Positions 16,319 to 53,700 of a stretch of 64,000 nucleotides of DNA are shown piece by piece. How positions within the stretch are numbered: the stretch's first letter is position 1; the number at the start of each line of letters is the position of its first letter. The notes below the pieces were generated by a model. The model worked only from the letters and a program-made list of their open reading frames with translations, searched no databases and had not been told where the DNA came from. This DNA comes from Candidatus Latescibacterota bacterium (lineage in GTDB: Bacteria; Krumholzibacteriota; Krumholzibacteriia; WVZY01; JAKEHA01), in assembly GCA_963707635.1 (NCBI GenBank), contig OY970173.1, positions 2,944,001 through 3,008,000 of the forward strand, in the 5' to 3' direction. Position numbers and translations under genes: made by a program.

Positions 16319-16376
16319 GCGGGTGGCGCCGACGGGCTGTCGGCGACAGGACCCGCGGAGCCGACAGGACCCGCGG
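16319..16376 (+). repeat. Short copy (A) of a dispersed palindromic element, followed by a duplication of its right arm
   Basis: GCGGGTGGCGCCGA-CGGGCTG-TCGGCGACAGGACCCGC; both arms are identical to the copy at 51591-51657. CGACAGGACCCGCGG occurs at 16344 and again at 16362. Confidence 0.8.
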
Positions 16377-16380
16377 GGGT

Positions 16381-17232
16381 CTACTGACTCATCGCCAGAA
16401 CGCGCGCGTTTTCTTCCAGCTTGATCTCCGCCATCGCGAAGCCCGCGTTCACCGCGGCGTCTAGCTTCGAATAGTCTTCGATCTTGAGGTCCGGTGAAAG
16501 TGACGGGCGAATCAGCACCTCGGGCGGGTTGAGCGACAGCCGAATCGAATTGAGAGGCGCCTGCGGGATGTCGATCGCCTTCATCATCATTTCGAACAGG
16601 AGCGGTCGCTTGCCCTCCAGCAGCGGCTTGCGCAACTTCTCCCACAACGAGCGCTCGTCGGTAAACACCAGCTCACGGTCCGCCGGCGCGCTGGTGTCGA
16701 CCGCCACCACCGGGGCCGTCGTCAGGGTTCGAATCACGTCGACCGGGAGATTGTTGAGGAGCGCTCCATCGACCAGCACCCTTCCGCGGTGACGCACGGC
16801 CGCAAACAGTCCGGGCAACGCGCTGGTCGCGCGCAACGCGGGCAACAGTTCGCCCTCGTTCAAGACCACCAGCTTGCCGCGCTGCACGTCGACCGAGGTC
16901 ACGCTCAGCGGGAGGGCGAGCTCTTCGAACGTGCCCGGGAGGTACTTCTCCAGGTGGCGCGTGATTCCCCGCCCGCCGATCAGTCCACCCATGCGGCCCG
17001 GGTCGAGGAGGCGTATCACGTCGAAGCCGCGGAAGATCTCGTGAATGCGCTCGGATCCGTAGCCGGCGGCGTGCAGCGCGCCGATGATCCCGCCCATCGA
17101 ACACCCCGCGACGGCCGTGACCTCGAAGCCGCGCCCCTCCAGCGAGCGCAGCACGCCGATGTGGGCAAACCCGCGCGCGCCGCCGCCGCCGAGCACGAGT
17201 CCTATTTTCAGCTTCGCGGTTTCGGAACCCAT
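16381..17232 (-). CDS. Patatin-like phospholipase (RssA/NTE family)
   Basis: GGGGARG, GCSMG nucleophile elbow, DGALLNNLP. Confidence 0.92.
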   Translation of the reverse strand: MGSETAKLKIGLVLGGGGARGFAHIGVLRSLEGRGFEVTAVAGCSMGGIIGALHAAGYGSERIHEIFRGFDVIRLLDPGRMGGLIGGRGITRHLEKYLPGTFEELALPLSVTSVDVQRGKLVVLNEGELLPALRATSALPGLFAAVRHRGRVLVDGALLNNLPVDVIRTLTTAPVVAVDTSAPADRELVFTDERSLWEKLRKPLLEGKRPLLFEMMMKAIDIPQAPLNSIRLSLNPPEVLIRPSLSPDLKIEDYSKLDAAVNAGFAMAEIKLEENARVLAMSQ

Positions 17233-17370
17233 GGAGTCCCGATAGTGTGGCGACGAAACGCGGCGCTGTCAAACTCCCCTCGCGGGTGCGGCTCTGTTTT
17301 CCCTTGCGCGGCCTTCCCGCGCTTTGCTACTGTCGGTCTCCCGGGCCGGGGACCGCAGTTCCCCCTTTCG

Positions 17371-17916
17371 ATGCAAGCAAGTCTCCTGTTGGGATTGGGC
17401 CTCGCTGCCCTTGCGGCGTGTTCGTCGGTCGAGGTGCACAACGACTTCGACGTCGAAGCGAACTTCGCCGCCTACCATACCTATGCGTGGATTCCTCAGC
17501 CGGTGAACGCCACCGGGAGCGTGAAGTCCGCACAGGAGCGCAATACGCTGCTGGACAAGCGCATCCGCAGCGCGGTCGATGCGCAGATGGCCGCCAGGGG
17601 GTTTCGCGTCGACGCATCGGCCCCCGACCTGCTCGTGGTCTATCACACGGGCCTCGCCGACAAGGTATCCGTGACCGACTGGGGTTACACCTACGCGGGC
17701 AACTACTGGGGATGGGCCGGACGCGACATCGACGTGTCCACGTACACGGAAGGGACGCTCATCGTCGACCTGGTCGAGGTGGCCAGCAAGGAACTGGTGT
17801 GGCGGGGTTCCGCGACCGGCACGGTGGATCCGTCCGCTTCTCCGGAGAAACGCGAACAGCGCCTGAACGACGCGGTCGCACGCATGTTCGAGAAGTATCC
17901 ACCGCATCAAGACTAG
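17371..17916 (+). CDS. DUF4136-like lipoprotein
   Basis: Lipobox LAAC; DFDVEANFAAYHTYAW, YTEGTLIVDLV...LVWRG, MFEKYPP. Confidence 0.8.
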   Translation: MQASLLLGLGLAALAACSSVEVHNDFDVEANFAAYHTYAWIPQPVNATGSVKSAQERNTLLDKRIRSAVDAQMAARGFRVDASAPDLLVVYHTGLADKVSVTDWGYTYAGNYWGWAGRDIDVSTYTEGTLIVDLVEVASKELVWRGSATGTVDPSASPEKREQRLNDAVARMFEKYPPHQD

Positions 17917-17956
17917 CGGCGAATCGACAGCCAACCACCCGCAGACGAGGTTCCGA

Positions 17957-18598
17957 ATGATTCGCAGACTGGCAGCATGGGTCGTCGTCGTCCTGGCCGT
18001 ATCCGCCACCGGCGCCGCCGCGCAGCAGATGAAGGTGTACCGCTACAACGACCGCGCCGCCAGCCGTTTCGAAGTCGTCCCCTTCGGCGGATACGTCTGG
18101 TCGTTCGGGAAGGATTTCTATTACTCCGCTGCGGGGCAACTCGACTTCAAGGACACGGGCTACTTCGGCGTGAGCCTCGACGTCGGCGTCCACCCGGGCA
18201 CCCAGCTCCGGCTGCTGTACCGGCGGCAGGATACCGAGCTCGAATTCCGCACCGTCTTGAATCTACAGACGGTCACCGGCGCGATCGAGTACTGGCACAT
18301 CGGCGGCCTCACCGGCGTACAACGCGGCAACGTGCTACCCTACGGAATGCTCACCCTCGGTGGCACCCGCTACCTCGCGCAGGACGACGACGTGTGGAAG
18401 TTTTCCATGATCTTCGGCCTCGGGGCCAAGATCTACGCCAGCGGCAAGTTCGGCCTCCAGATTCAGGGCAGCCTCCCGTTCACCTTTGTCGACGGCGGCG
18501 GCTCGATCAGTTGCGGCGGGGGAGGTTGCTTCAGCTCGGTGGGGGGAACCGGCCTCGGCCAGATCGACGTCAGTGGTGGTCTCATTATCGGTCTCTAA
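17957..18598 (+). CDS. Putative outer-membrane beta-barrel protein
   Basis: Signal peptide; alternating amphipathic strands (FEVVPFGGY, FGLGAKIY, SGGLIIGL). Confidence 0.65.
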   Translation: MIRRLAAWVVVVLAVSATGAAAQQMKVYRYNDRAASRFEVVPFGGYVWSFGKDFYYSAAGQLDFKDTGYFGVSLDVGVHPGTQLRLLYRRQDTELEFRTVLNLQTVTGAIEYWHIGGLTGVQRGNVLPYGMLTLGGTRYLAQDDDVWKFSMIFGLGAKIYASGKFGLQIQGSLPFTFVDGGGSISCGGGGCFSSVGGTGLGQIDVSGGLIIGL

Positions 18599-18620
18599 AC
18601 CTCGAAAAGGAGTCAAACGC

Positions 18621-19085
18621 ATGTTGAAGAGAATCGTTCTATTGCTGTCTTTCCTGTCCGTCGTGGGTGCGACCGCGCCGAGCTTCGCGCAGGCGGACCT
18701 GGTCGAGCTGATGCGTTCGGACCTGCGCACGCAGAAGAAAGCCATCCTCACCCAGGCCATGCAGTTGACCGAGGCGCAGTCCGAGGCGTTCTGGCCGGTC
18801 TACAACGAATACGAAGGGGAGCTCATGAAGCTCAACGATGCCCGCCTGGCGCTCATCAAGGACTACGCGTCCAACTACAGCACGATGACCGACGCGGTCG
18901 CGAAGGACCTGGTCAAGCGTTCGTTCAAGTGGCAGGAGGGAAACACCAAGCTGCTGAAGAAGTACTATGGGAAAATGGAGAAGGCGTTGTCGCCGATCGT
19001 CGCGGCGCGCTGGGTCCAGGCCGAGCACGCCATCGACGCCATGATCGACGTCCAGGTCGCGTCGGAAATTCCGCTGATGCCGTAG
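18621..19085 (+). CDS. Exported helical protein (Spy/CpxP-like LTxxQ...FWPVY pattern)
   Basis: AAGGAG RBS, signal peptide ending SFA-Q, MQLTEAQSEAFWPVYNEY. Confidence 0.7.
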   Translation: MLKRIVLLLSFLSVVGATAPSFAQADLVELMRSDLRTQKKAILTQAMQLTEAQSEAFWPVYNEYEGELMKLNDARLALIKDYASNYSTMTDAVAKDLVKRSFKWQEGNTKLLKKYYGKMEKALSPIVAARWVQAEHAIDAMIDVQVASEIPLMP

Positions 19086-19110
19086 TCGTTCCAGTGAACC
19101 AGGAGTGGGC

Positions 19111-19764
19111 ATGAACGGCCTCGCACGGACACTCGCCCGCGTCGCGGCGTGCGCGGCGGCAGCCGGGTTCGCCGTCCTGATGGCGTCCTGCACGCCGGGG
19201 TCCGAGATCACCGCGGCCGAGTCGGACCTCGTGGCGACTCGGTACGAAGGGGCGTTCGACTTCGGAGCGGTCCAGAGCTATGCGCTTCCGGATTCCATCG
19301 TACACATCACGGGGGATACCACCGACGCCGACTCGCGGCTCCTCTCCCGCGACTACGACGATGAAATCATCGCGCAAGTTGCCGGCGAGCTGGACGCTCT
19401 GGGGTGGACGCGGGTCACGGACCCGGGCACGGCGGATATGGTCGTACTCGTGGGAGCCACCGCGCGGGTCGATCTCGCGTCCTATTCTCCCTGGTACGGG
19501 TACTGGGGCTGGTATTACCCGTACCCGGGCGGGTGGGGCTGGTATTACCCGTATCCGGTGGTGTCGTACAACTACACGATCGGCACGCTCGTGATTCTCA
19601 TGAGCGATCCGGATTCGGCCGACCCGAATACCGAGACCTACGAGGTACCATGGGTGGCCGCGATCAACGGCGTTTTGGACGACGCCACCGCCGACAAGCA
19701 GGCTCGGATTTCACACGGCATTGCACAGGCCTTCGATCAGTCGCCCTACTTGTCGGGCGACTAG
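19111..19764 (+). CDS. DUF4136-like lipoprotein (second paralogue)
   Basis: Lipobox MASC; DFGAVQSYALPD, W/Y/P-rich loop, YTIGTLVILM, QAFDQSPYL. Confidence 0.72.
   Translation: MNGLARTLARVAACAAAAGFAVLMASCTPGSEITAAESDLVATRYEGAFDFGAVQSYALPDSIVHITGDTTDADSRLLSRDYDDEIIAQVAGELDALGWTRVTDPGTADMVVLVGATARVDLASYSPWYGYWGWYYPYPGGWGWYYPYPVVSYNYTIGTLVILMSDPDSADPNTETYEVPWVAAINGVLDDATADKQARISHGIAQAFDQSPYLSGD
19504..19553 (+). repeat. Intragenic 20-bp direct repeat with 30-bp period (WGWYYPYP twice)
   Basis: TGGGGCTGGTATTACCCGTA at 19504 and 19534. Confidence 0.85.
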
Positions 19765-19780
19765 CCGGACGGAGACCCCG

Positions 19781-20395
19781 ATGGGAAGACCGGTGCTTGC
19801 CTTCGTTCTGCTGGGTGTGTGCCTGCCCGCCGCCGCGTTCGCGCAGGAGAAGATGGCGGGAGTGACCTATACCATGTCGCTGCCCGGGTCCAACATGGAA
19901 GTGTACATCGACGAGACCAGCTTCCGGGGGGTTCAGGTCTTCGTCCGCGGGACCGCGTGGCGCGGCCGGCCCATCATGGTAGGCGCGACCATGGGCTGGG
20001 AGGTATTCAGCTTCGAGACCAGCGAGCCGATCCAGCTCGACAGCGGGACCATCTCCGGCCAGCAGCGCCGGTACCTCAACGCGGTGCCACTCCTGGCCAC
20101 GCTCCACTACTACCTGGGAAACCAGGACTCGTGGCGGGTGCTCGTCGGCCTCGGCGTGGGTACCATCTACATGCTTCAGACCTTCGAACTCGGCGTCTAC
20201 TCGTTCGACAATGGGACCTGGCAATTCGGGTTGGTACCCGAGGTGGGCGTGCAGATTCCGGTGAGTTCCACGACCGACCTCTATCTGGCCGGCCACTACG
20301 ATTACGCGTTCGAAGCCGGCGAGTCGCTCAACGGAGAAGGAGTGGCGTGGAACTACTGGAGCCTCGACGTCGGGTTCGCCTGGACGGGATGGTAA
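19781..20395 (+). CDS. Putative outer-membrane beta-barrel protein (OmpW/OmpA-like)
   Basis: Signal peptide ending AFA-Q; strands VPLLATLHYY, FGLVPEVGVQIP, WSLDVGFAW. Confidence 0.68.
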   Translation: MGRPVLAFVLLGVCLPAAAFAQEKMAGVTYTMSLPGSNMEVYIDETSFRGVQVFVRGTAWRGRPIMVGATMGWEVFSFETSEPIQLDSGTISGQQRRYLNAVPLLATLHYYLGNQDSWRVLVGLGVGTIYMLQTFELGVYSFDNGTWQFGLVPEVGVQIPVSSTTDLYLAGHYDYAFEAGESLNGEGVAWNYWSLDVGFAWTGW

Positions 20396-20410
20396 CGCGG
20401 CGCCTCGCGG

Positions 20411-21886
20411 TCACAGGCCGAACACCCAGCGTCCCCACGTATAGACCAGCACCGTCACGACGACGATGCCGATCCAGTCGAGCACGAACCCGGCGCGCAC
20501 CATGTCCGCGGTGCGCACGCGCCGGGTGCCGAACACGATCGCGTTGGGCGGCGTGGCCACCGGCAGCATGAAGCCGCACGACGCCGCCAGTGTCGCCGGC
20601 ACCATGAGAAACAGCGGGTGGATCCCGGTCGCGCCGGCCATCGACGCCAGCACCGGCAGCATCACCTGCGCGAGCGCCGTGTTGGACGCGAGCTCGCTCA
20701 AGAAACACACGGCCGCGGTCACCACCGCCAGCACCACGATCGGCGGCGCACCCGCGACACCACCGAGCTGCTTCCCCAGGTATTCCGATAGCCCCGACAC
20801 CTGAAACGCCTCTGCCAGCGCGAAGCCGCCCCCGAAGAGGATGACAATCTCCCAGGGCAGCTTCTGAAGGGCGGCGCCGTCCAGCACGAAGCCGGGCTGC
20901 GACCGCGATGGCGTCAGGAACAGCACCAACGACATCCCGATCGCCACCACCCCGTCCGACATCCGCTCCCCGAGTCCCAGCCGCGTCGCCCAGCCGCGCA
21001 CGGTCGTCTCGCCGAACACCGCGTCGGCGCGGGTGACAATCAAGGCCACGAAGAGGACGAAGACCGACAGCACGACGCGCTGCTCGAAGGTGATGGGGCC
21101 CAGCGCGCGATGCTCGTCCCGGATCAGTCCACGGTCGATCGGGACGTTGCAACGTCGCAGCACGGTGACGCGAAAATAGGCGTACAACAGGAGCAGCATC
21201 GTGGTCGAAACCGGGACGGCAGCCGCCATCCAGGCGAGAAACGTCACCGGCGGGGCGTCGGGAAACGCCCCCGAGTAGACGCGCAGAAACACGAGATTGG
21301 GCGCAGTGCCGATCAGCGTCGCCATTCCGCCGATCGACGCCGCGTAGGCCACCCCGAGCAGCATTGCGGTGGTAAGCCGCGCCGCGTCCACGCCGCCGCG
21401 TTCTTCCAGTTTCACCATCAACGACATGACGATGGGCAGCATCATCAGCGTCGTCGCGGTATTGTTGACCCACCACGAAATGAACCAGGTCGCGGCCATG
21501 ACACCGAGGAGCAGCGTGGCCGCGTTCCGCCCGATCCACAGCAGGATGCGAAGCGCGATGCGGCGGTGGAGACCCCACTCCTGCATCGCGATGGCCAGGA
21601 GGAAGCCTCCGATGAACATGAACATCAGGTCGTTCATGTACTCGGAGGCGGTGGCGGAAGGGCTCATGACGCCGAGCAAGGGCAGGAGCACCACCGGGAG
21701 CAACGCGGTCACTCCCATCGGGAGCGCTTCCGTGAGCCAGTAGCACGCCATGAGCACCGCTACCGCGAGCGTCCTTCCCACCGCCGGTTTCTCCGGCACC
21801 GGGTCCGCGCCGAACAGGACGGCGAAGAACAACAACGCCCCCGCGGCGAGGGCGATTCGCGCGCGAACCTCGCGGCGCACCGTCAT
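20411..21886 (-). CDS. SLC13/DASS family anion:sodium symporter
   Basis: WLTEALP, NNTATTLMMLP, IGGMATLIGTAPN, SNTA, FMLPVATPPNAI. Confidence 0.93.
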   Translation of the reverse strand: MTVRREVRARIALAAGALLFFAVLFGADPVPEKPAVGRTLAVAVLMACYWLTEALPMGVTALLPVVLLPLLGVMSPSATASEYMNDLMFMFIGGFLLAIAMQEWGLHRRIALRILLWIGRNAATLLLGVMAATWFISWWVNNTATTLMMLPIVMSLMVKLEERGGVDAARLTTAMLLGVAYAASIGGMATLIGTAPNLVFLRVYSGAFPDAPPVTFLAWMAAAVPVSTTMLLLLYAYFRVTVLRRCNVPIDRGLIRDEHRALGPITFEQRVVLSVFVLFVALIVTRADAVFGETTVRGWATRLGLGERMSDGVVAIGMSLVLFLTPSRSQPGFVLDGAALQKLPWEIVILFGGGFALAEAFQVSGLSEYLGKQLGGVAGAPPIVVLAVVTAAVCFLSELASNTALAQVMLPVLASMAGATGIHPLFLMVPATLAASCGFMLPVATPPNAIVFGTRRVRTADMVRAGFVLDWIGIVVVTVLVYTWGRWVFGL

Positions 21887-21901
21887 GCGGCACGGCCGCG
21901 G

Positions 21902-22552
21902 TTAGAGTCCGTCATAGCTCCGCCACAGATAGAGGGTGCCGATCGTGCGGTAGGGGCGCCACGCGTCGGCGATGCGATGGTATCGGCTGGCGCGCACGTT
22001 TCGGCGCAACCCGTACCGCGCCGCCATCGCCTTGCGCAGCCCCAGGTCGCCCACCGGAAACACGTCGAGGCGGTTGAGCGCGAAAATGAGGAACATGTGC
22101 CCGGACCACTCCCCCACCCCCTTGATCGCGGTGAGGGTCTGCATGACGCCCTCGTCGTCGGTGCGCGCGAGCGAGCGCCGGTCGAAACGGCGGGACGCAA
22201 ACGCGGCGGCGACATTTCGGGCGTAGACGACCTTCGACCGCGACAGGCCGCACGCGAGCAGTTCCGCGTCGGAAAGTGCGAGGACCGATGCGGCGGTGGG
22301 GGCGCGCCCGCCGGCCGCGGCGGCGAGGCGGCGATAGATCGCGCGGGCGGCGTGCGTGCTCAACTGCTGGGACACGATCGTCTCCAGCATCACCTGAAAC
22401 GCGCTGCGAGTTCCACGCAGCTCGTACGGGCCGAAGCGATCGATGAGCGCGCGAACCACGGGATCGCGCCGTCGCAGGTGGCGAACGGCCGCGCGAACTT
22501 CCCGGTCGAGTTCGGCAACCCGTGACGAATTGCGGCCGTCGAGCCACGCCAT
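21902..22552 (-). CDS. DNA-3-methyladenine glycosylase II family (AlkA-like, HhH-GPD)
   Basis: IVSQQLS, GLSRSK, IKGVGEWS, FPVGDLG, WRPYRT. Confidence 0.9.
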   Translation of the reverse strand: MAWLDGRNSSRVAELDREVRAAVRHLRRRDPVVRALIDRFGPYELRGTRSAFQVMLETIVSQQLSTHAARAIYRRLAAAAGGRAPTAASVLALSDAELLACGLSRSKVVYARNVAAAFASRRFDRRSLARTDDEGVMQTLTAIKGVGEWSGHMFLIFALNRLDVFPVGDLGLRKAMAARYGLRRNVRASRYHRIADAWRPYRTIGTLYLWRSYDGL

Positions 22553-22652
22553 GGCGTCATTATATACGTCCCGCACCCGCCCACAACCGCCGTTCTGCCT
22601 CGCAACCCTATTGATGTGCCGGGCGCCGTTCTGATAGCGTGAGGCATCCACC

Positions 22653-23885
22653 ATGTCGGCACCCGGCGAAGACAATCTCATCCACGACTGGAACCCGCCC
22701 GTCGCGGCCCCGCGTTACCCGCTCAAGCTCAACGACGAAACCCTGCGCGACGGCTTGCAGTCGCCGTCGGTGTTCAACCCCAGCGTCGCGGAGAAGCTCG
22801 AAATCCTGCATTTCATGGAGGGTCTGGGGATGTCTTCGGCCGCGATCGGCCTGCCGGCAGCCGGGCCCCACGCGTTCAACGACGTGCTCGCCATCGCGGG
22901 GGAAATCGCGCGCGCGCGGATGAAGATCTACCCCTACTGCGCCGCGCGCACGCACCCCAACGACATCACCCCGATCATCGAGATCCAGCAGAAGACGGGC
23001 ATCAAGGTGCAGGCGGCGCTGTTCATCTTCTCCAGTCCGATCCGCCAGCTGGCCGAGGACTGGACGGTCGACAAGATGCTCAAGGTGAGCGAGGCCGCGA
23101 TCGAATTCGCGCACAACAACGAGGTCCCGGTCATGTATGTGACCGAAGACACCACGCGCTCGCGACCCGACACCCTTGCGCGCCTCTATCAGATGGCCAT
23201 CGACCACGACGTCGAGCGCCTGTGCATTTCCGACACGGTCGGCCACGCGACGCCGTCGGGAGCGGACGCGGTGGTCCGGTTCATTCGCGGGCTGGTGGAG
23301 AAGGCGGGCAAGCCGATCGGAGTGGACTGGCACGGCCATCGCGACCGCGACCTCGCGGTCGCCAACTCGATCGCCGCCCACCTGGCCGGCGCCGATCGGA
23401 TCCACGGGTCGATGCTGGGTATCGGCGAGCGCGTCGGCAACACGCCCATCGACACGCTGATGGTGAATTTCAAACTTATGGGCCTGTTCGACCACGACCT
23501 GACCAGCCTGCCGGCGTACGCGCGCAAGGTCTCGCAGGCGTGCCGCGTTCCGATCCCCGACAACTACCCGGTGCTCGGGCGCGACGCATTTCGGACCCAG
23601 ACCGGCGTGCACGCGGACGCGATCGTCAAGGCCTACCGCAAGGGCAACGCGTGGCTGGCGAATCGGGTCTACAGCGGCGTCCCCGCGGACGAGCTGGGTC
23701 TGGAGCAGGTGATCGAAGTGGGACCGATGAGCGGAAAATCAAACGTTCGCTACTGGCTCGAGTCGCGCCGCATCGACGCGACCGACGCGCTGGTCGAGCG
23801 CATCTTCGAGCGCGCCAAGCAGGCGGATCACATCCTCACCGACGATGAGATTCGCGCCATCGTCCGGGCGAACGCGGCGGAATAG
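22653..23885 (+). CDS. DRE-TIM LeuA/homocitrate synthase family enzyme without the C-terminal regulatory domain
   Basis: DETLRDGLQ, EDTTR, DTVG, HGHRD, GIGERVGN, GVHADA, GPMSG; 410 aa. Confidence 0.87.
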   Translation: MSAPGEDNLIHDWNPPVAAPRYPLKLNDETLRDGLQSPSVFNPSVAEKLEILHFMEGLGMSSAAIGLPAAGPHAFNDVLAIAGEIARARMKIYPYCAARTHPNDITPIIEIQQKTGIKVQAALFIFSSPIRQLAEDWTVDKMLKVSEAAIEFAHNNEVPVMYVTEDTTRSRPDTLARLYQMAIDHDVERLCISDTVGHATPSGADAVVRFIRGLVEKAGKPIGVDWHGHRDRDLAVANSIAAHLAGADRIHGSMLGIGERVGNTPIDTLMVNFKLMGLFDHDLTSLPAYARKVSQACRVPIPDNYPVLGRDAFRTQTGVHADAIVKAYRKGNAWLANRVYSGVPADELGLEQVIEVGPMSGKSNVRYWLESRRIDATDALVERIFERAKQADHILTDDEIRAIVRANAAE

Positions 23886-23895
23886 CGCGCGGCGC

Positions 23896-24576: not shown

Positions 24577-24797
24577 ATCGGACTACCTCCGCGCGAGACG
24601 CGATATCGAATGAAGCGACCGCCGACGCATCGAAATCGAAGCACCGGCGGATACACGGCGGCGGTTGCCAGCTGCCGCCCGCGCACGTTCTGCACAACTC
24701 GCTGCCAGAGTATACCATAGCCCCGGGGTGGTCGGGAAGTAGCCACCTGCGCCGGAGACGCTGGATGTGGATCCGGGGTCCTTACTAATTCATTTAC

Positions 24798-24875
24798 AAT
24801 CAGTTAGTTGATCCGCTCGCCTCGCGCACTTTAGAGGCCTTGGTGCTTCTCGCCGGGCACACCCGGTGCTACACT
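24798..24875 (+). promoter_or_regulatory. IHF-like site plus candidate promoter (sigma54-like -24/-12, or extended -10) upstream of the oppA-like gene
   Basis: AATCAGTTAGTTG fits WATCARN4TTR. GGGCAC-ACCCG-GTGCT at 24855-24870 overlaps TGCTACACT. Confidence 0.4.
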
Positions 24876-24923
24876 GCCGACCACGCACGGGGACTCGTGG
24901 TCCGGGGAACCAAGGAGAGGCAC

Positions 24924-43945: not shown

Positions 43946-44057
43946 CGCGCGGATCGCGCGGTAGGGCCTCGCCGGGATGCCCTCGTCGCCCCGAACTGGC
44001 AACGCCATTAACGAACGCGACCTGCGTGGTCGCGCTGATCGACGGAGGTTCATCGGA

Positions 44058-45110: not shown

Positions 45111-45123
45111 CCGCCCTTTCCCG

Positions 45124-45972: not shown

Positions 45973-47798
45973 TTGAGCGCCCTTTCGACCGCGTGGATGG
46001 CATCGCGCGCCGCACTCGCGAGCCTCGTGCCCGCCCCGGCGTCGGCCGGACCCGCGGCGTAACGCGCCGCGTCGCAGGCCTCGATGGCGCCCCGCACCGC
46101 GCCGGCCTGCGCGTCACCAACCTCCCGGGTGGTGAGAAACGACTGGATCGCGTCGCTCGTGAGCCCAGCGACCGGCGCGTTCATCCGATCTGCGAAATAG
46201 CCGAACAGCGCCGCGTGAATCGCCCCGTAGCCGGCCTCCACGTTTCCGGACCGGAACGACTTCTCGGCCGCTCCCAGACGCCGCTCCGCGTCGCGCGCCG
46301 CGCGGCTCGCGCGCGCAAAGCCGACGTCGTCGCGCAGGCGGCGGCGGCGACGCTCCACGGCCAGCGACGCGACCACCCCCAGCGCGGGCAGGGCCTGCAG
46401 GATGAGGAACAACGGCCGGGTATAGAACGGCTCCGGTGCGGCGGCGAGAACCGCGGGCAGCGGATGGATGTACCGGATGTCGCGGTTGAGCACCTCGAAG
46501 TCGTCGCCGCCGCCGGCGTAGATCACCTTGCGGCCGTCTTCGTTGGTGCCGGGCTTGACCTCGATCGCGATCGCGGCCGCCTGCGCCACGTCGTAACGGT
46601 GCCGGCGGGGGTCGTAGTACGCGATCCGCGTCCCCGGCAGCGTGAACTTCCCCTCGGTCTGGGGGACCATCACGTAGTCGAACTTGCGGCGGCCGGACAC
46701 CAGGTAGTCCTTCTTGAACGAGTCGGTCGCGTTTCCGGATTCGTACACCTTGAATCCCTCGAGTCCCGCGAGTTTCGGCGGGGAAAGTGTGCGCATGTTG
46801 CCCACGCCGTTCACCTCGATGGACACGTTGATCGGTTCGCCCACCTGCGCCACCTGCTTGTCCGCGACCAGCGTGACGGTGAGGTCGCTCGCCACCGCGC
46901 CGCCGAAATCGGAGGGTTTGCCCGCGCCGGGCAGCGGCAGCACGACGATCTTCTTCGGCTGGGTGGTGAGGGAGCGTTGCTCGCCGAATCCGCCCCCGCG
47001 AAATCCACGGTTGAAGAAGTCGTCGAAGCGCCCGCGCATGTCGTCGAGAACGAGGTCGACGCGTGCCTCTCCGATCGTGTAGACGCCGGGCGCGGTCGGG
47101 AAATACGCCCGCTTGATCTCGGACACCAGGTAGCGGCGGTTGTGGATGGTGGCGTTGTACTTGTTCTGCGGCGGGAGGTCCTCGACCCAGAACCCCTCCG
47201 CGCTGGGCGGCGAGTAGTTGGGCGCGCGCAGGAGCTCGACCCGGCCGTCGGCGTAGTAGCCGAGCGTCCACGTCACCTGCTCGTTCACATACACGGTGTC
47301 GCGGTCGACGGCGGCGGCGACGAAGATACTCTCGTCCTGCGACGGCAGGGCCGTCCCCGGTGTGCCGGCGCTCGCCGGCGGCGCGTTCGGCGTGGGGATG
47401 GATGCGCCGCCCGCCACCACCTGGACCACGACCGGGTTGGCCGTGTATTGCTTGTCCCCCAGCACGAGGCGAATGGGCTCGATGCGGAAAGTGCCCTCCT
47501 TGCGCGGCTGGAGCACGTAGGAGAACGTGATCGACGAACTGGCCTGTCCGTTGACGAAGCTGAAGTTCTGCGACGTGCCCGCCTCGAACACGTCGAAGTC
47601 CTCGAGGGCAGGAAGCTCCGGCGCGACCGAGCGCCGGAATTTTCCCTCCACCTCGATGGTCAGGACGGCCTGACCGCCGACCTCCACCGTCGCAGGCTCG
47701 ACGCGCGCGCGCACGGTGACGTCGTCCGCGCGCGCGACTCCCGCGCACACCCACGCCGCGAGCGCCAACGTCATGACTCTGGACCGTGCCGATCTCAT
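45969..47798 (-). CDS. batD: BatD-like protein
   Basis: SFVNG, VYVNEQ, FGGAV, VGEP, GVGN, YYDP; operon position. Confidence 0.85.
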   Translation of the reverse strand: MRSARSRVMTLALAAWVCAGVARADDVTVRARVEPATVEVGGQAVLTIEVEGKFRRSVAPELPALEDFDVFEAGTSQNFSFVNGQASSSITFSYVLQPRKEGTFRIEPIRLVLGDKQYTANPVVVQVVAGGASIPTPNAPPASAGTPGTALPSQDESIFVAAAVDRDTVYVNEQVTWTLGYYADGRVELLRAPNYSPPSAEGFWVEDLPPQNKYNATIHNRRYLVSEIKRAYFPTAPGVYTIGEARVDLVLDDMRGRFDDFFNRGFRGGGFGEQRSLTTQPKKIVVLPLPGAGKPSDFGGAVASDLTVTLVADKQVAQVGEPINVSIEVNGVGNMRTLSPPKLAGLEGFKVYESGNATDSFKKDYLVSGRRKFDYVMVPQTEGKFTLPGTRIAYYDPRRHRYDVAQAAAIAIEVKPGTNEDGRKVIYAGGGDDFEVLNRDIRYIHPLPAVLAAAPEPFYTRPLFLILQALPALGVVASLAVERRRRRLRDDVGFARASRAARDAERRLGAAEKSFRSGNVEAGYGAIHAALFGYFADRMNAPVAGLTSDAIQSFLTTREVGDAQAGAVRGAIEACDAARYAAGPADAGAGTRLASAARDAIHAVERALK

Positions 47799-47810
47799 GG
47801 ATGCCCGAGC

Positions 47811-49661
47811 CTACCAGTCCTTGCCCGAATGCTTCAACTTCCGGAACGCCGCCTTGCGGCGCTCGCGCTGGAGCTGCGCTTCGCGGTCTTCGAGCGCCTG
47901 CAGGATGCGCATCGCGTCTTCCTTCGACAACTGCTGCATCTGCTCCTCCGACAGGGGCGACGCCAGCGAGTCGGCCGGAGGCGGCTGCATCCGGGACGAA
48001 TCGGGCTCCGAGGGCTGACTCTGCGAGGAATCCGGCGGCGACGGGTTGCGGTCCCGATCCTGCGACGGTGAAGGCTGCGAGTCCGACCTGGTCGAATCGG
48101 ACCCGGAGCCGGACTGGGAGTCCTCCCTGGACTGATCGCCACCGGAAGACTTCTGCTTCTGCTGCTGCTTGTCCTGTTGCTGCTGCTGCTTCTGGGCCAG
48201 CGCCATTTCGAGATTGTGGCGCGCGTCTTCGTCGTCGGGCAGGTACTGCAACGCCTGGATGTACGACTCGACCGCTTCGCCCGCCCGGCCACTCTTGAAG
48301 AGCGCGTTGCCGCGGTTGTAGAGCATGCGCCCGGTGAGCACGCTGTCGGGCGAGAAGCCGCGCTGGTAGTAGTCGATCGCGCGGTCGTACTTCTTCTGCT
48401 GAAAGAGCGCGTTGCCCCCGTTGTAGAAGACGCCCGGAGCGTTCGCGGGCGGGCGGGCGCTGTCGCCGAGCGCCTGGCGGTAGAGACCGAATGCCTTGTC
48501 GTATTCGCCGTCGGCGTACGCGTGGTTGCCGGAGCGCAGCTTGCCGCGACTGACCGATTTGGCGCTCGCGGGCACCGCGTTGCCGGCGAGCTCCAGCGCG
48601 GCCAGTGCGGTCACGACCAGCGCCCCCGTGTGCAACGGCCGCGTCCGCTCGCCCCCGCGCCGGCTGGCCCGCGTCCCGACCAGTGCGTCGACCAACAGGC
48701 ATCCGAGCGCGAGCGCGAGTGGCACCCAGAAGCGCTCTTTCTTCCGCTCGACGAATTCTCCCTTGATCAGTTTCTTCTGCATGCCCGCAATTTCATCGTA
48801 GAGCACCTTGATCTCGACGCCCTCCGGCGTCGCGGGGAGATACCGGCCATTCCCCGCCGCGGCCACCCGCCGCAGGGAAGCTTCGTCCAGGCGACTCAGC
48901 ACCGTCTCCCCCCTCGCATCCTTCTTGTATCCCGTGACCGCGCCGTCCGTTCCGCGCTCCGGAATCAACTCGCCCTTCGGAGTCCCCATGCCGATGGCGT
49001 ACACGCGGATCCCCTTCTCGGCCGCCGCGGCGGCCGCCCGTTCGGGCTCGCCCTGCTGGTTCTCACCGTCGGTCACCAGGATGATGGCGCGGTCGCCCGC
49101 TTCCGTGGGCCCGAACATGACGACGGCGGTCTCGATCGCGTCTGCGATGGCGGAGCCGGGCTCCGAAATGGTGTACACGTCGACGGACCGGACCAGCATG
49201 AGCGCGGCGGCGTAGTCGACCGTCAACGGACAGAGGGCCACCGCTTCACCGGCGAACGCCACCACCCCGACCCGGTCACCCTGCAGCCCGCCGATCAGAT
49301 CCATGATCTCGCGCTTCGCGCTCTCCAGACGGTTCGGCGGCACGTCCTCGGCCAGCATCGACAGCGAGGTGTCGAGCGCGATCACGACGTCAATTCCTTC
49401 TCTTTCCACTTTGACCAGCTGGCTCCCGAAGCGCGGCCCCGCGATGGATGTGATCAACATCGCGTACGCCAGGACCCACAACATGCCTTTCGCCAGGTGA
49501 CGCCGCCAGCTGAATCCCGGCGCCAGCGCCGGTTCGAGCCCGCGCCCGATGAATGCCGACAGGGCGTTCCGGCGCCCGCGGACGCCGAGTGCCACCAGCA
49601 CGGCCAGGAGCGGAATTCCGGCCAGGCCCCACAACCATAACGGTCTCGAGAACTCGATCAT
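47811..49661 (-). CDS. BatB-BatC fusion (VWA + TPR + Q/S-rich tail)
   Basis: ALDTSLSM MIDAS, PNRL, PLTVD, VTDGEN, YNGGN/YNRGN TPRs, ARHNLE, poly-Q, terminal KDW. Confidence 0.87.
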   Translation of the reverse strand: MIEFSRPLWLWGLAGIPLLAVLVALGVRGRRNALSAFIGRGLEPALAPGFSWRRHLAKGMLWVLAYAMLITSIAGPRFGSQLVKVEREGIDVVIALDTSLSMLAEDVPPNRLESAKREIMDLIGGLQGDRVGVVAFAGEAVALCPLTVDYAAALMLVRSVDVYTISEPGSAIADAIETAVVMFGPTEAGDRAIILVTDGENQQGEPERAAAAAAEKGIRVYAIGMGTPKGELIPERGTDGAVTGYKKDARGETVLSRLDEASLRRVAAAGNGRYLPATPEGVEIKVLYDEIAGMQKKLIKGEFVERKKERFWVPLALALGCLLVDALVGTRASRRGGERTRPLHTGALVVTALAALELAGNAVPASAKSVSRGKLRSGNHAYADGEYDKAFGLYRQALGDSARPPANAPGVFYNGGNALFQQKKYDRAIDYYQRGFSPDSVLTGRMLYNRGNALFKSGRAGEAVESYIQALQYLPDDEDARHNLEMALAQKQQQQQDKQQQKQKSSGGDQSREDSQSGSGSDSTRSDSQPSPSQDRDRNPSPPDSSQSQPSEPDSSRMQPPPADSLASPLSEEQMQQLSKEDAMRILQALEDREAQLQRERRKAAFRKLKHSGKDW

Positions 49662-49685
49662 CGTCCTTCCTCGTCGTGCGCCGCG

Positions 49686-50672
49686 CTACGGCGTCTCGCG
49701 CAGCACGGTCTCTCCCAACCCCAGCTCGAGCACCAGGAGCCCGAGCGCGGGGATGAGGAACCATGTAAACCGATCCGTGTACTCGACGAACGTTTCCGAT
49801 TCGACTTTCGACTTTTCCATTTTATCGATGGTGTCGTAGATCGCCGACAGCTCTTCCCGGTCGGTGGCGCGAAAGTACTCACCGCCGGTCAGCTTCGCGA
49901 TCTTCATTAGAGAGTCTTCGTCGATGTCGACCTCGACCGACACCAAACGACGGCCAAACACCGGGTCGTCGATCGGCATGGGCGCGCGCCCGCGCGTGCC
50001 GACCCCGATCGTGTACACCTTGATCCCAAGCGACGCGGCCACGCGCGCGGCGGTGATGGGGTCGACCATGCCCGCGTTGTTCTGCCCGTCGGTCAAGAGG
50101 ATCGCGATGCGGCTCTTGGCGTCGCTGGTTCGCAGGCGGTTGCACGCGGTGGCCAGCGCCACCCCGATGGCCGTGCCGTCTTCGAGCATGCCGAAATCGA
50201 CCGCGTCGACGAGCTTGGTGAGCAGCGCGTAGTCCAGGGTCAACGGGCACTGCGTGATGGCGTCGGCCGCAAACGCGACCAGGCCGATGCGGTCCTGGCT
50301 TCGCTTGGCGATGAACTCCTTGACCACTTCCTTCGCTACGTGGAGGCGGTTCTTCGGCTCGAAGTCCTGCGCCTGCATGCTGCCGCTGGTGTCGAGCACC
50401 AGCATGATGTCGATTCCTTCCGCGTAGGTGGTGTGCTTCGACCGTCCGGTTTGCGGCCGCGCGAGCCCGACGATCACCAGCGAGAGCACGGCGAGGCGCA
50501 GCGCGAGCACCGCGTGTCGTTTCCACACCGGCGCCCCGAGCCCGGCGGCGAGCATGAGGTCGAGCGACGAGTACGCGACGCTGCGCCGCCGGCCGTGGCG
50601 CAGCGCGTACCACGCGACCAGCGGCACCAGCGCGAGCAGCGAAAGCAGGTACGGGTGCGCGAAGCGGAACAT
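49686..50672 (-). CDS. batA: BatA-like VWA domain protein
   Basis: LARPQ, LDTSGSM MIDAS, PLTLD, GTAIG, LLTDGQNN, YTIGVG, TGGEYFRA. Confidence 0.9.
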   Translation of the reverse strand: MFRFAHPYLLSLLALVPLVAWYALRHGRRRSVAYSSLDLMLAAGLGAPVWKRHAVLALRLAVLSLVIVGLARPQTGRSKHTTYAEGIDIMLVLDTSGSMQAQDFEPKNRLHVAKEVVKEFIAKRSQDRIGLVAFAADAITQCPLTLDYALLTKLVDAVDFGMLEDGTAIGVALATACNRLRTSDAKSRIAILLTDGQNNAGMVDPITAARVAASLGIKVYTIGVGTRGRAPMPIDDPVFGRRLVSVEVDIDEDSLMKIAKLTGGEYFRATDREELSAIYDTIDKMEKSKVESETFVEYTDRFTWFLIPALGLLVLELGLGETVLRETP

Positions 50673-51683
50673 TTACGCGTCTCCCCCCGCGGCGGCCGCG
50701 GCAGTCTCCACCCGCGGCGTGGTGTCGACCACGACCGCGCGGGCGCGCTCGATGGCGGCGGTCGCCGCCGGCCGGTCCGGCACCAGTTTGGCGAACTTGA
50801 CCAGATCCGCCTCTTCCAGCAGCGCGGCGAGGTCGCCCACCGGCGCGTCGCGGCGGTGGATTTCCCGTATCAGCTCCGGCGAGGTTCGATCCATCGCTTC
50901 GACCCCGAAGCGCGCCTCGAGGTAGCGCCGCACCACGTCGACCACGAGTGTGTAGTAGAGCTTGAATTCTCCCCGGTCGAGGTACCCCATCCCCGCGATC
51001 CGTTCCAGCTCGGTGAGCGCCACCAGGTCGGGCGGAAGGCGGACTTCCGCCGCGGCGGTCACCGGCCGGCGCGCGCGACGCCGGCGAATCCACCACACGA
51101 TCCCCGCCGCGAGTGCCAGCACGCCGAGGCCCACCAGCGCCCACAGCAGGTAGTTGGGCGGGAGCGTCCATTGCTCCTTCAGCGGCCGCGTGTCCTTTGC
51201 GTCGAGCGCGATGCGGCGGATCGGCACCTCGATGGCGTCGCTCACCGCATACACGGTGTCCCCCGCGGGAGCGAGGAACGCGAACCGGTTGGCGGGAACC
51301 ACCGACGAGTCGAGGTCGACGGGAATGAAGGTGACTTCGGCGGTCCGTTCGACCCGGCCGCCGGCGGGCTTCTCGCTCCACGCGATCGACACCACCCGGC
51401 AGGTGCCCGCTTCGAGCCGGTCGGGAATCAGCTGGGTGAGCGAGTCAGGAAAGGAAAAACGGTACGCGACGTGGAATCGCTGCCCCACCGTTACCGAGTC
51501 GAAACGCGCGTCGGTGGTGAGCTCGACGGTGTCGAAAGTGGCGGCGCCGGCCGACGACGCGAACATGCACGCTGCCCAAATGAGGCACAAGCGGGTGGCG
51601 CCGATCCGGGGCCCCCGCGGGCAAAGCCCCGTGGGGTGGATCGGCGACAGGACCCGCGCGGTTGCCTCGTGGAGCCGATTCAT
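50673..51683 (-). CDS. Bat operon membrane-anchored protein (conserved position between DUF58 and BatA); start uncertain
   Basis: Beta-rich N-domain, a transmembrane helix, then VRRYLEARFG, MDRTS, ADLVKFAK. Confidence 0.75.
   Translation of the reverse strand: MNRLHEATARVLSPIHPTGLCPRGPRIGATRLCLIWAACMFASSAGAATFDTVELTTDARFDSVTVGQRFHVAYRFSFPDSLTQLIPDRLEAGTCRVVSIAWSEKPAGGRVERTAEVTFIPVDLDSSVVPANRFAFLAPAGDTVYAVSDAIEVPIRRIALDAKDTRPLKEQWTLPPNYLLWALVGLGVLALAAGIVWWIRRRRARRPVTAAAEVRLPPDLVALTELERIAGMGYLDRGEFKLYYTLVVDVVRRYLEARFGVEAMDRTSPELIREIHRRDAPVGDLAALLEEADLVKFAKLVPDRPAATAAIERARAVVVDTTPRVETAAAAAGGDA
51591..51657 (+). repeat. 67-bp palindromic element, copy B
   Basis: GCGGGTGGCGCCGATCCGGGGCCCCCGCGGGCAAAGCCCCGTGGGGTGGATCGGCGACAGGACCCGC; 61/67 identical to the reverse complement of 53634-53700. 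Confidence 0.9.
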
Positions 51684-51698
51684 GTGGAAGGCGCTCGC

Positions 51699-52622
51699 CT
51701 AACGCCGGCGGGCCCGCGACTTGAAGAACACGGACAGCGGCACGATGTAGTCCTGCCCCGCCTCGATGCGCACGCAGTCCACTCCGTGGCGACGGAACAG
51801 ACCCGCCAGCTCCTCGTCGCGACGGCGCGCGTGGGCCGCGAAGCGTTCGCGCGCCGCGCTTGAGCTCAAGTCGACCACGCGCTCGATCTGTGCCTCCTGG
51901 TCCCACACCCGGAGCATTCCCGCCCCTTCGAGCCGGTCCTCGCGCGGGTCGGCGAGGCGGATCGCAACCAGGTCGTGACGGCGCGCCGCCATCGCCAGCG
52001 GGCGCGAGAAATCGGGCGAGAGAAAATCGCTCACCACGAACACGATGGCGCGGCGCTTCTGCACCTTGAGCAGAAACTCGAGCGCCTGCGCCACGCGCGT
52101 GCGGTGGCCGCGCGGCTCGTAGAAGAGGATTTCGCGCACCAGGTGGAGCACGTGGCGCCGGCCCTTGTCGGGTGGAATGTACTCCTCGACGTCGTCGGTG
52201 AAGGCGATGGCGCCGACTTTGTCGTGGTTCTGGATCGCGCTGAAGGCGAGCACCGCGCAGATCTCGGCGGCGGTGTCGAGCTTGGTCTTGTCGGCGGAGC
52301 CGAACCTGCCCGACGCGCTCACGTCGAGCAGGAACATCACCACCAGCTCGCGCTCCTCCATGAAGCGCTTCAGGTAGGGCGTGCCCATGCGCGCGGTCAC
52401 GTTCCAGTCGATGGCGCGAATATCGTCGCCGGGCTGGTACTCGCGCACCTCGTCGAACTCCATGCCCTGGCCCTTGAACACGCTGTGGTATTCGCCCGAG
52501 AAGACGTCGTTCACCAGCCGGCGGGTCGTGATCTCGACGCGGCGGACCTTCTTCAAGATCTCCGCGATGCGTCTCTCTCCCGCCGGCGACGGCGGGTTCG
52601 CGCTACGGGTCGGGGGCGCCAT
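51699..52622 (-). CDS. DUF58 domain protein
   Basis: SVFKGQGMEFDEVREYQPGDDIRAIDWNVTAR, EERE, DVSAS, VSDF. Confidence 0.93.
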   Translation of the reverse strand: MAPPTRSANPPSPAGERRIAEILKKVRRVEITTRRLVNDVFSGEYHSVFKGQGMEFDEVREYQPGDDIRAIDWNVTARMGTPYLKRFMEERELVVMFLLDVSASGRFGSADKTKLDTAAEICAVLAFSAIQNHDKVGAIAFTDDVEEYIPPDKGRRHVLHLVREILFYEPRGHRTRVAQALEFLLKVQKRRAIVFVVSDFLSPDFSRPLAMAARRHDLVAIRLADPREDRLEGAGMLRVWDQEAQIERVVDLSSSAARERFAAHARRRDEELAGLFRRHGVDCVRIEAGQDYIVPLSVFFKSRARRR

Positions 52623-52626
52623 CGGC

Positions 52627-53613
52627 TCAAGGCACCTCGATGTGGTCGAAGATGCGCTGGAGAACGGCCTCGGAGTCCAGGCCCTCCGCCTCGGCTTCGT
52701 AGGTCACGATTACCCGGTGGCGGAGCACGTCGAATCCGACCGCCTTGACGTCCTCGGGCGTGGCGTAGCCGCGCCCGCGCAGGAACGCGTGCGCCCTGGC
52801 CGCTTCGGCGAGGAAGATGGTGGCGCGCGGCGAGCCGCCGTAGGCGATGAGGTGCTTGATGGGAAGCTTGAATGATTCGGGATCCCGCGTGGCAAAAACG
52901 ATGTCGAGGATGTAATTCTTCACCTTCTCGTCCATGTAGATTTCGCGCACCGTCTGCTGCGCCTGCTTGAGGACCTGCGGGTTGATCACCGGGTCGATGA
53001 CCGGCACGTTCCCCGCGGTGACCATCTCCATGATTGCCTTCTCTTCCTCGCGCGACGGGTAGGTGACCTTGAGCTTGAGCATGAAGCGGTCGACCTGCGC
53101 CTCCGGGAGCGGGTAGGTCCCCTCCTGCTCGATCGGATTCTGGGTGGCAAGCACCAGGAAGGGAAACGCGAGCGGATAGGTCTTGTCGCCGATCGTCACC
53201 TGGCGTTCCTGCATGCATTCGAGCAACGCACTCTGCACTTTCGCGGGCGCACGGTTGATTTCGTCCGCCAGAATGAAGTTCGCGAAGATGGGTCCCTTCT
53301 TGGCCGTGAAGGAATGGTCGCGCGGGTTGTAGACCTCCGTGCCGATGAGATCAGCGGGCAGCAGGTCCGGGGTGAATTGGATGCGGCGGAACGTCGTGTC
53401 GATCGACGCCGCCAGCGTCTTGACCGAGAGCGTCTTGGCGAGTCCGGGGACGCCTTCGATGAGCACGTGCCCGTCGCACAGAATGCCGATCAGCAGCCGG
53501 TCCACCAGATAGCGCTGGCCGATGATGGCGCGCTGGATCGACCTCTGCAGGATCGGGATGAAGTGACTCTCGCGCTGGACGCGCTCGTTCAGGGCCTGGA
53601 TTTCGTGCTGCAT
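52627..53613 (-). CDS. moxR: MoxR family AAA+ ATPase
   Basis: EGVPGLAKT, RIQFTPDLLPAD, ADEINRAPAKVQSALLE, ATQNPIEQEGTYPLPEAQVDRF, SPRA; GGAGGTG RBS. Confidence 0.96.
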   Translation of the reverse strand: MQHEIQALNERVQRESHFIPILQRSIQRAIIGQRYLVDRLLIGILCDGHVLIEGVPGLAKTLSVKTLAASIDTTFRRIQFTPDLLPADLIGTEVYNPRDHSFTAKKGPIFANFILADEINRAPAKVQSALLECMQERQVTIGDKTYPLAFPFLVLATQNPIEQEGTYPLPEAQVDRFMLKLKVTYPSREEEKAIMEMVTAGNVPVIDPVINPQVLKQAQQTVREIYMDEKVKNYILDIVFATRDPESFKLPIKHLIAYGGSPRATIFLAEAARAHAFLRGRGYATPEDVKAVGFDVLRHRVIVTYEAEAEGLDSEAVLQRIFDHIEVP

Positions 53614-53633
53614 CGTCACCTCCGTTGAACTAC

Positions 53634-53700
53634 GTGGGTCCTGTCATCGATCCACCCCACGGGGCTTCGCCCGCGGGGGCCCCGGATCGATGCCACCCGC
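53634..53700 (-). repeat. 67-bp palindromic element, copy C (in the moxR 5' leader)
   Basis: Minus strand GCGGGTGGCATCGATCCGGGGCCCCCGCGGGCGAAGCCCCGTGGGGTGGATCGATGACAGGACCCAC. Confidence 0.9.

Follow-up and report, generated by a model that had tools for sequence, protein, structure and literature searches.

The dispersed palindromic element described here is a repeat of the REP/RPE kind, which is distinguished by a foot that remains invariant across phyla, and it is probably a gene-less mobile DNA, composed of this fixed foot and a freely changing top, for which a foot-recognising mover protein is the candidate agent. Folding on one strand of single-stranded DNA is likely, as is copying to new sites by a foot-recognising protein, with host repair synthesis probably completing the joint. 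This reading draws upon the dispersal of the copies, empty sites, the constancy of the foot across phyla, paired but variable inner stems and strand asymmetry, together with ends that are imprecise, insertions that recur in frame and in either orientation at one gene loop, and tail-out doublets. The original prediction of a structure-keeping, REP-like mobile repeat is supported, and both further copies and empty orthologous sites were found.

Three copies, termed A, B and C, lie in a 64,000-nucleotide stretch of a Candidatus Latescibacterota genome (the window, Table 1). The alignment of B with C gave the same identity as had been claimed (61 of 67 positions), and the differences at 10, 11, 54 and 55 constitute two compensated pairs, that at 33 falls in the apical loop, and that at 66 breaks one outer-stem pair in C. 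Copy A keeps the outer arms, with 14 nt of the left end of B and 17 nt of its right end on either side of a 7-nt centre, and the right arm of A is duplicated as described, with similar right-arm duplications present at other places in the genome. The fold proposed for B and C was recovered as claimed, except that the supposed GG/ACAGG internal loop resolves into two further pairs, a G.A mismatch and a purine bulge of 3 nt; the folding energies are -29 kcal/mol for B (z -3.46; 1 of 200 shuffles as good) and -21.9 kcal/mol for C (z -2.76; 4 of 200). Scanning the window for the right arm with at most one mismatch returned only A, its duplicate, B and C, plus one unrelated match. Copy B adds about 23 residues to the ORF in which it lies, ahead of a hydrophobic stretch that we read as a predicted signal peptide.

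Table 1. Copies of the element and associated features in the window
Feature	Coordinates	Strand	Context
Copy A, 38-nt short form	16319..16356	+	Flanked by two convergent genes (Peptidase M28 family; patatin-like)
Second right arm after copy A (period 18 nt)	16360..16374	+	
Copy B, 67-nt form	51591..51657	+	Antisense, in open frame, inside 5' end of ORF 50673-51683
Left flank of copy B	51585..51590	+	Fits the loose genome-wide upstream consensus GCACGA
Copy C, 67-nt form	53634..53700	-	Divergent spacer, 20 nt upstream of MoxR-type AAA_3 gene
Left flank of copy C	53701..53706	-	GCACGA
336-aa ORF, no Pfam match	50673..51683	-	Start codon predicted

The further copies that had been expected were found, amounting to 73 genome-wide in three size classes and in both orientations. 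A two-arm pattern matched 14 sites versus none for a reversed control, and a looser two-arm pattern matched 54 versus none, so that chance is excluded. The near-invariant arms are GCGGGTGGC (left) and GACAGGACCCGC (right), of which the former is exact in 72 of 73 copies and the latter in 61 of 73. Together they form a foot made up of a stem, a G·A mismatch and a 3-nt purine bulge, which went unrecovered in one of the four folds of one folding set. The inner stems are variable yet fully paired, and in a set of 329 distinct elements each inner position from 1 to 7 shows all four Watson-Crick pair types, exceeding all 1000 shuffles in a comparison uncontrolled for relatedness. The compensatory changes behind the earlier description "structure-selected" are real, but alone they are no proof of selection, since template switching can create them in one step (bioRxiv 10.1101/2021.04.15.439925); a dispersed hairpin may show such changes without being a functional RNA. 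Nested and stacked copies occur in the genome, and the spaced pairs are inverted in 12 of 13 cases with the right arms outward. Doublets are a minority, most copies being singlets, and doublet partners often derive from different subfamilies. A replichore bias is often seen for single-strand transposition; here, the leading strand holds 40 of 73 copies (p 0.48) and an overall bias is absent.

The sites of all three window copies were found empty in relatives, that of A in 3 of 3 and that of B in 12 of 12 aligned relatives, and the position of C in 13 of 13 genomes aligned; the same spacer in one of these carries a copy that belongs to a different subfamily and has the opposite orientation. These empty sites indicate a mobile element instead of a conserved cis-RNA. 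At the site of B, a metagenome contig contains 80 nt versus 145 nt in this genome, and at the site of another copy 82 nt are replaced by 13 nt in a second metagenome contig, an allele that could alternatively be a deletion scar; the comparisons cover relatives and metagenome contigs, and none of these supplied a clean allele predating the insertion in a near-identical strain. One gene loop is unoccupied in 8 genomes and is lengthened by 9-99 bases in 16, all 16 longer alleles being in frame. The full copies at this loop comprise seven on the plus strand and six on the minus strand, their net insert length varies, the flanks turn with the element, and different subfamilies occupy one orthologous site. 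A fixed-length direct target duplication was not found among the imprecise ends, and direct flank similarity barely exceeds that of shuffles. In this genome, 13 of 73 copies lie within an open ATG-started frame and 4 are deep inside genes according to our own gene calls, and a strict test for internal in-frame copies of the Solirubrobacterales type gave 1 of 50.

A functional structured RNA under host selection, such as a terminator, an mRNA stabiliser or a cis-regulator, had been put forward as the alternative. It would suit the strong covariation, the mostly intergenic location with only 3 of 73 copies between divergent genes, and the plus strand being also the better folder as RNA. Nevertheless, it is very unlikely in view of the copies between co-oriented genes (32 sense, 21 antisense, p 0.17), the empty orthologous sites and the presence of both orientations inside one gene loop. 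Moreover, the stem-closed GNNA loops of the Solirubrobacterales type are GNYA in 33 of 35 cases, not GNRA, and the suggested Rfam comparison gave no match at gathering score.

Mobile DNA of the REP/RPE kind, by comparison, agrees with a marked strand asymmetry. G.A versus T.C mismatches stand at 43:2 in this genome and 203:12 elsewhere, and G.T versus A.C at 106:15 elsewhere but 4:4 in this genome. That the purine mismatches and the GNA/GNYA loops share one strand speaks for single-stranded DNA. Among 128 external copies, the three bases flanking the element are paired in 112, 109 and 104 (at most 69, 73 and 66 in shuffles), whereas this outer pairing is weak in this genome (29, 23 and 23 of 70; shuffle maxima 31, 28 and 31). 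The pairing extends over at least 5 pairs in 21 of 80 lower-GC-locus copies versus 1.8 expected, reaching up to 17 bp. Such palindromic flanks of host-like composition, the single GC kept in one empty allele and the lengths at B, which fit a 65-nt gain, would be compatible with a classical MITE bearing GGGT/ACCC terminal repeats, in which a DDE or IS110 enzyme uses palindromic NNN-GC-NNN targets with GC duplication. This explanation is highly improbable, given that the terminal bases change together as an inverted pair (GC..GC in 20, AC..GT in 7 and AT..GT in 1 of 28), that the net insert length is variable with flanks turning with the element, and that IS110 is absent from this genome. The GC target duplication had been our first reading and was dropped on the variable insert lengths and the covarying terminal pair.

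The element had been called lineage-specific, which proved incorrect, as the same foot occurs in Solirubrobacterales, Omnitrophota, Rokubacteria, Nitrospirae and others. The right arm is present 2-59 times per genome in 41 of 41 carriers versus 0-3 times for the control, these carriers having been picked for already having one copy, and the arm constancy across them is partly imposed by the exact search patterns. With a looser pattern applied at 28 loci, the free position is A in 24 and the terminal dinucleotide is paired in all 28. One phage contig carries a true copy (one among 11 in that search of viral contigs); the earlier viral-contig searches returned 2 poorly paired matches, none, and 120 matches, 9 of them with short stems and not one convincing, and the plasmids searched held no copy.

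As for a mover, the RAYT or Y1 partner that had been proposed was sought and none was found beside copies, in agreement with the earlier remark that the window has no cognate transposase. A search for Y2 enzymes was silent beside the copies and in its control genomes alike. PF01797 occurs in 0 of 17 genus genomes, and Y1 is present in 15 of 41 carriers, yet none of 30 fetched Y1 loci had a copy within about 1.5 kb. NF047646 is absent from this genome, six carrier relatives and ten actinobacterial carriers. The 89-aa GIY-YIG gene of this genome has no copy nearby, and among the fetched GIY-YIG loci 1 of 30 has one, beside a 412-aa frame; ten Solirubrobacterales or other actinobacterial carriers gave at most one GIY-YIG match each, in frames of 181-830 aa that we take to be UvrC. 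No Ssn-size gene was found beside any copy. Copies were seen at 0 of 15 DUF559 loci, and one copy elsewhere abuts a DUF559-like gene. Reverse transcriptase was detected in 1 of 5 genomes, a genome other than this one, and never beside a copy. The orphan arms in this genome bound no recognisable transposase, and Pfam searches of 83 of 124 candidate neighbour ORFs revealed no transposase or mobile nuclease, 28 of the 83 having no Pfam family. The right arm may resemble relaxase nick sites.

Integron attC sites are bulged two-part hairpins with a variable top and conserved R-box ends, occurring in cassette arrays with an integron integrase nearby. An attC-like folded site for a tyrosine recombinase, bracketing gene cassettes, would match the bulged two-part hairpin with its variable top and the foreign-looking DNA between copies at three loci. 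It is scarcely credible here, where the copies are scattered in either orientation among housekeeping genes, the three integrase-family (tyrosine recombinase) matches of this genome have no copy within 1.5 kb, and the ends are imprecise.

It is also conceivable, albeit unlikely, that a dedicated mover does not exist and that the hairpin stalls forks or is cut by host repair, spreading via gene conversion, microhomology and template switching among copies. The ~370 loci surveyed by ORF clustering and reference BLAST favour this explanation, as no mobile gene lies beside copies and the neighbour clusters are housekeeping only, and so do the nested and stacked copies and the different subfamilies at one orthologous site. 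In addition, one locus shows raised third-position A/T in the vicinity of filled sites (near, p 0.0013; far, p 0.09), in a comparison of 14 filled and 7 empty alleles that are not independent and whose tree is mostly unresolved. However, new insertions at unrelated sites, the fixed tail-out doublets and the unerased asymmetric foot are not readily explained in this way, and the patchy presence (11 of 151 in one class) suggests a patchy factor.

If a foot-recognising protein moves the element, one strand would fold during replication, repair or transformation, and a nuclease may bind the bulged foot, which would account for the persistence of bulge and mismatch where all other positions change. 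The strand would then be joined at a break and its 3' end would prime fold-back synthesis, resulting in inverted flank copies, partial arm duplications and variable net length; both the nuclease-binding and the fold-back step are drawn by analogy, since the mover search found nothing. Template switching between the arms may generate the compensatory changes, selection would keep intergenic and in-frame insertions, and phages or other incoming DNA may carry the element between phyla.

The CGTC-tagged REPs, or Ssn-related motifs, resemble the element in that its minus strand combines a stem with a TGTC tag and a tail containing CCA, most inverted dimers have the tag outward, and intragenic copies exist. 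The minus-strand TGTC is present in 66 of 73 own and 308 of 308 external copies (where the pattern imposes it), inside a longer stem. The account of these repeats by Di Nocera 2013 (PMC3733652) leaves them without a dedicated transposase and includes RPE-4 and RPE-6 among them, and their link with Ssn dates only from 2025 (Chenal, PMC11893778). They are about 30 nt long in contrast with 24-128 nt here, where another invariant stem surrounds tag and tail, a fixed AT start is absent, and the purine-rich loops are on the strand that does not carry the tag; the SRM pattern as published, with a stem of 8-9 bp and a loop of 4-5 nt, matched 0 of 308 external and 0 of 73 own copies on either strand. 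The Rickettsia palindromic elements are likewise palindromic, intergenic and in frame within unrelated genes (PMC10969869); set apart by descriptions, they are about 150 bp long, whereas the present element is shorter, crosses phyla and takes both orientations at one site. REPINs mobilised by RAYT (Bertels and Rainey 2011, PMC3116915) are also non-autonomous, extragenic and arranged in inverted pairs of fixed polarity, but here singlets prevail, doublets are often of mixed subfamilies, no RAYT was detected in the high-copy hosts tested, and the arm and flank consensus lacks the terminal GTAG of REP/RAYT. The mycobacterial MIRUs share a length of 40-100 bp, 40-50 copies, GC-rich internal inverted repeats and open frames overlapping genes, and differ, as compared by description, in the 4-nt direct repeats reported at filled MIRU sites (PMC3184786), none of which was found here. 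The element was not described in the titles and abstracts listed by a literature search that covers a minority of the subscription journals.

The wider question addressed is the origin and movement of RAYT-less REP/RPE-type hairpins, for which the element offers a fixed recognition foot across distant phyla, filled and empty alleles, and a patchy presence that makes a profile search for the mover possible; a new hairpin-specific ssDNA enzyme, if found, would be a useful tool. A bolder proposal, possible but doubtful, is that of a widespread ssDNA replicator, whose 21-base bulged foot would be read by one conserved, undescribed protein across many phyla and which would insert by fold-back instead of RAYT, Ssn or DDE chemistry. 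If true, this would represent a third REP-moving system and would make the writing of new peptides into essential proteins by RPE-type repeats tractable in a model; the element might also bracket islands of foreign genes. The twelve regions examined between neighbouring copies contain housekeeping genes, repair polymerases or foreign-looking cargo, and at one locus (L221) a 154-aa ORF between two inverted copies matched only unnamed Atlas clusters (0.89-0.90).

The three copies of the hairpin repeat lie where the original prediction placed them, and B and C are, as it stated, identical at 61 of 67 positions; their compensatory changes amount to two compensated pairs, and of the two further differences one alters the loop and the other disrupts the outer stem of C. 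The predicted folds of both beat nearly all shuffled sequences, and intermediates between them occur among other copies, where the first pair to change is a G.T wobble in one copy and the finished A-T pair in two. A search of the closed 3.2-Mb contig of this genome yielded 73 non-redundant copies and no matches to reversed-pattern controls. The left arm is exact in 72 and the right arm in 61 of the 73, which comprise a ~67-nt type (38), a ~95-nt type (23) and short forms (12), and they are frequently stacked, nested or trailed by a repeated right arm. According to our own gene caller, co-oriented genes enclose 32 copies in sense and 21 in antisense, convergent genes 17 and divergent genes 3, and an open ATG-started frame holds 13 of the 73, four of these deep within genes. 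Overall, replichore bias is absent (40/73 on the leading strand); post hoc, the 67-nt type was distributed 27 leading to 11 lagging and the 95-nt type 6 to 17 (Fisher p 0.0012), a contrast for which a single replichore is almost entirely responsible (15:1 and 1:14).

The repeat family is real and mobile. Among 16 genus relatives, site B is empty in all 12 that could be aligned and site C in all 13, and site A is empty in the three aligned relatives of five searched; in one of the 13, G009, the spacer of C holds a different subfamily in reverse orientation. Copy B lies antisense within the 5' end of an ORF, preceding a hydrophobic stretch, and the counterpart in relatives starts at about the same place without the insert. 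Metagenome contigs of ~90% identity are shorter at B (80 nt versus 145 here) and at two other copies (13 versus 82 and 154 versus 222 nt), and are not clean pre-insertion alleles. With its dispersal and empty sites, the proposed REP-like mobile repeat is supported; neither Rfam nor the literature compared gave a match. The flanking of the VWA operon by B and C looks incidental. In a further genome, G008, the spacer orthologous to that of copy A (L660) holds a different ~120-nt insert, which suggests a hotspot common to both genomes.

Coordinates of the repeat copies and associated features (G000:C1, whole contig of this genome; L-numbers, loci in other genomes)
Feature	Position	Strand	Remark
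Copy A	window 16319-16356	+	38-nt form; additional right arm ending 16374
Spacer of copy A	window 16290-16381
Copy B	window 51591-51657	+
Copy C	window 53634-53700	-
ORF holding B	window 50673-51683
BatA-type VWA operon	window 49686-53613		MoxR (AAA_3) and DUF58 genes, flanked by B and C
~190-bp repeat	G000:C1:2626610-2626807		relatives at, e.g., 393881-394071 and 1308242-1308417
DUF559 match	G000:C1:3198817-3199127		spread across two frames, amid other hairpin-like sequence
Direct copies	L653:918-5531		like flanks; bracket foreign-looking TIR and AAA ATPase block
Inverted copies	L655:1060-17032		around foreign-looking 16-kb block with JAB, HEPN/RES, integrase fragment
Inverted copies	L221:584-1218		around one AT-rich, foreign-looking orphan ORF
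Four copies in 7 kb	L650:1407-8172		around IMS-family and DNA polymerase III alpha genes
Phage-like contig	L674:4001-4090		true copy between genes

Structurally, the near-invariant left and right arms form a foot, which in B and C folds into five pairs (three outer pairs in C), a 3-nt purine bulge, two pairs, a G.A mismatch and one pair; the same fold was recovered in three of four distant copies. In the variable inner stem, or top, each of positions 1-7 takes every one of the four Watson-Crick types across a set of 329 distinct elements, exceeding all 1000 shuffles with kinship uncontrolled. Mismatches are G.A rather than T.C by 43:2 in this genome and 203:12 elsewhere, C-GNA-G loops in this genome number 63 on one strand versus 2 on the opposite one, and in the Solirubrobacterales type 33/35 tetraloops closed by a stem are GNYA; from this asymmetry in sequence, one strand is probably the folded strand. 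DNA forms stable loops of the GNA and GNNA kinds, and GNRA is favoured in RNA; a functional RNA is very improbable. An attC-like site is a highly improbable account of the repeat.

Outside the foot, flank bases 1-3 pair in 112, 109 and 104 of 128 copies from other genomes and the fourth does not; at lower-GC loci the pairing extends by at least 5 pairs in 21/80 copies, one reaching 17, and in this genome it is weak. A GC target duplication is disfavoured because the terminal dinucleotides stay paired in 28/28 loci found with a looser pattern; a MITE, for which target duplication is the failing feature, is very unlikely.

Taken as a whole, the observed dispersal, empty sites, fixed foot, paired but variable top, strand asymmetry, ragged ends and in-frame entry are probably best explained by a repeat acting through single-stranded DNA. 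One strand would fold into the hairpin, a hypothetical protein would recognise the foot, the folded strand would be joined at the site with fold-back synthesis, and arm-to-arm copying may occur within the hairpin. Host repair alone, acting without such a protein, is unlikely, if less so than the other alternatives. Because a single template switch can restore the pairing of a stem (bioRxiv 10.1101/2021.04.15.439925), compensatory changes on their own say little for selection; that the asymmetric foot stays constant is a stronger sign of recognition, since arm-to-arm copying would erase the asymmetry.

Insertion was followed at a loop in a Solirubrobacterales gene (L190-L219), which we take from its translation to be nuoC. 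The loop could be excised from 24 of 30 loci, of which 8 are empty (88 nt), one carries the right arm only (97 nt), and the others (148-187 nt) hold plus-strand copies (7), minus-strand copies (6) or other hairpins (2). Several subfamilies are represented, the reading frame is preserved in all alleles, 5-10 flanking bases invert together with the element, and filled and empty alleles intermingle on a tree that is largely unresolved. Within 45 nt, filled sites have more third-position A/T than empty ones (p 0.0013; p 0.09 farther away), which hints, for one locus in related genomes, at error-prone patching near copies. At a second site (L190-L214), antisense copies at a gene start supply a new start codon together with a purine-rich flank that resembles a ribosome-binding site.

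The range proved wider than the 'lineage-specific' distribution originally proposed, which is not supported. Scanning a single genome for each species gave at least 123 stretches, of which a few pair poorly and may be chance; hosts among the matches listed are mostly Solirubrobacterales and other Actinomycetota, together with Omnitrophota, Rokubacteria/Methylomirabilota, Krumholzibacteriia/Latescibacterota, Vicinamibacterales, Planctomycetales, Margulisiibacteriota, Nitrospirae and Patescibacteria. Counts of the right arm in 41 of these genomes are 2-59 per genome versus 0-3 for the control. Presence is patchy in this phylum (61/208 genomes, family f3 being at control level), in the class of genome G065 (11/151) and in the order of genome G048 (42/121, some single matches being chance-like), and the inner top GCGCGCAG...GAGCAC is common to all three. 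Single copies in metagenome bins could reflect misbinning, against which counts that AT-rich hosts carry their own subfamilies within AT-rich context. One phage-like contig carried a true copy.

The repeat behaves as do REP (PMC3733652, PMC3116915), SRM (PMC11893778) and RPE (PMC10969869) elements. The inverted doublets of REP/RAYT are found here without its RAYT, the in-frame insertion of RPE is shared, and neither the published SRM pattern nor the Ssn-flanking features of SRM-Ssn apply. The Rfam comparison suggested originally returned no family at gathering score, only two miRNA hairpin matches far below threshold, and the repeat is not described in the text of the REP, SRM, RPE and MIRU literature compared (including PMC3184786), whose figures and supplements could list its consensus.

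The RAYT or Y1 partner envisaged earlier did not materialise: Y1 transposases are absent from this genome and its genus, 0/30 Y1 loci from carrier genomes have a copy nearby, and RAYT is absent from 17 carriers in this phylum and Actinomycetota. IS110 and reverse transcriptase were not found in this genome, and no copies flank small GIY-YIG or DUF559 genes. At ~300 external loci the neighbours are housekeeping or without assigned family, as are the shorter ones next to the 73 copies (28 of 83 neighbour ORFs scanned lack one). With incomplete bins, and with a search that covered the families named here but neither DDE nor a number of nuclease families, a mover may have been missed; a new mover is possible, though doubtful.

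Spaced pairs of copies are inverted in 12 of 13 cases, with right arms facing outward. At L650, two of the four copies lie at or within the DNA polymerase III alpha frame; repair genes are reported as favoured REP sites in the text of PMC3733652. The separate ~190-bp dispersed repeat of this genome, with ~9 full-length relatives, lacks the arms of the 73-copy family and consists of two joined ~95-bp hairpin families, each of which also occurs singly.
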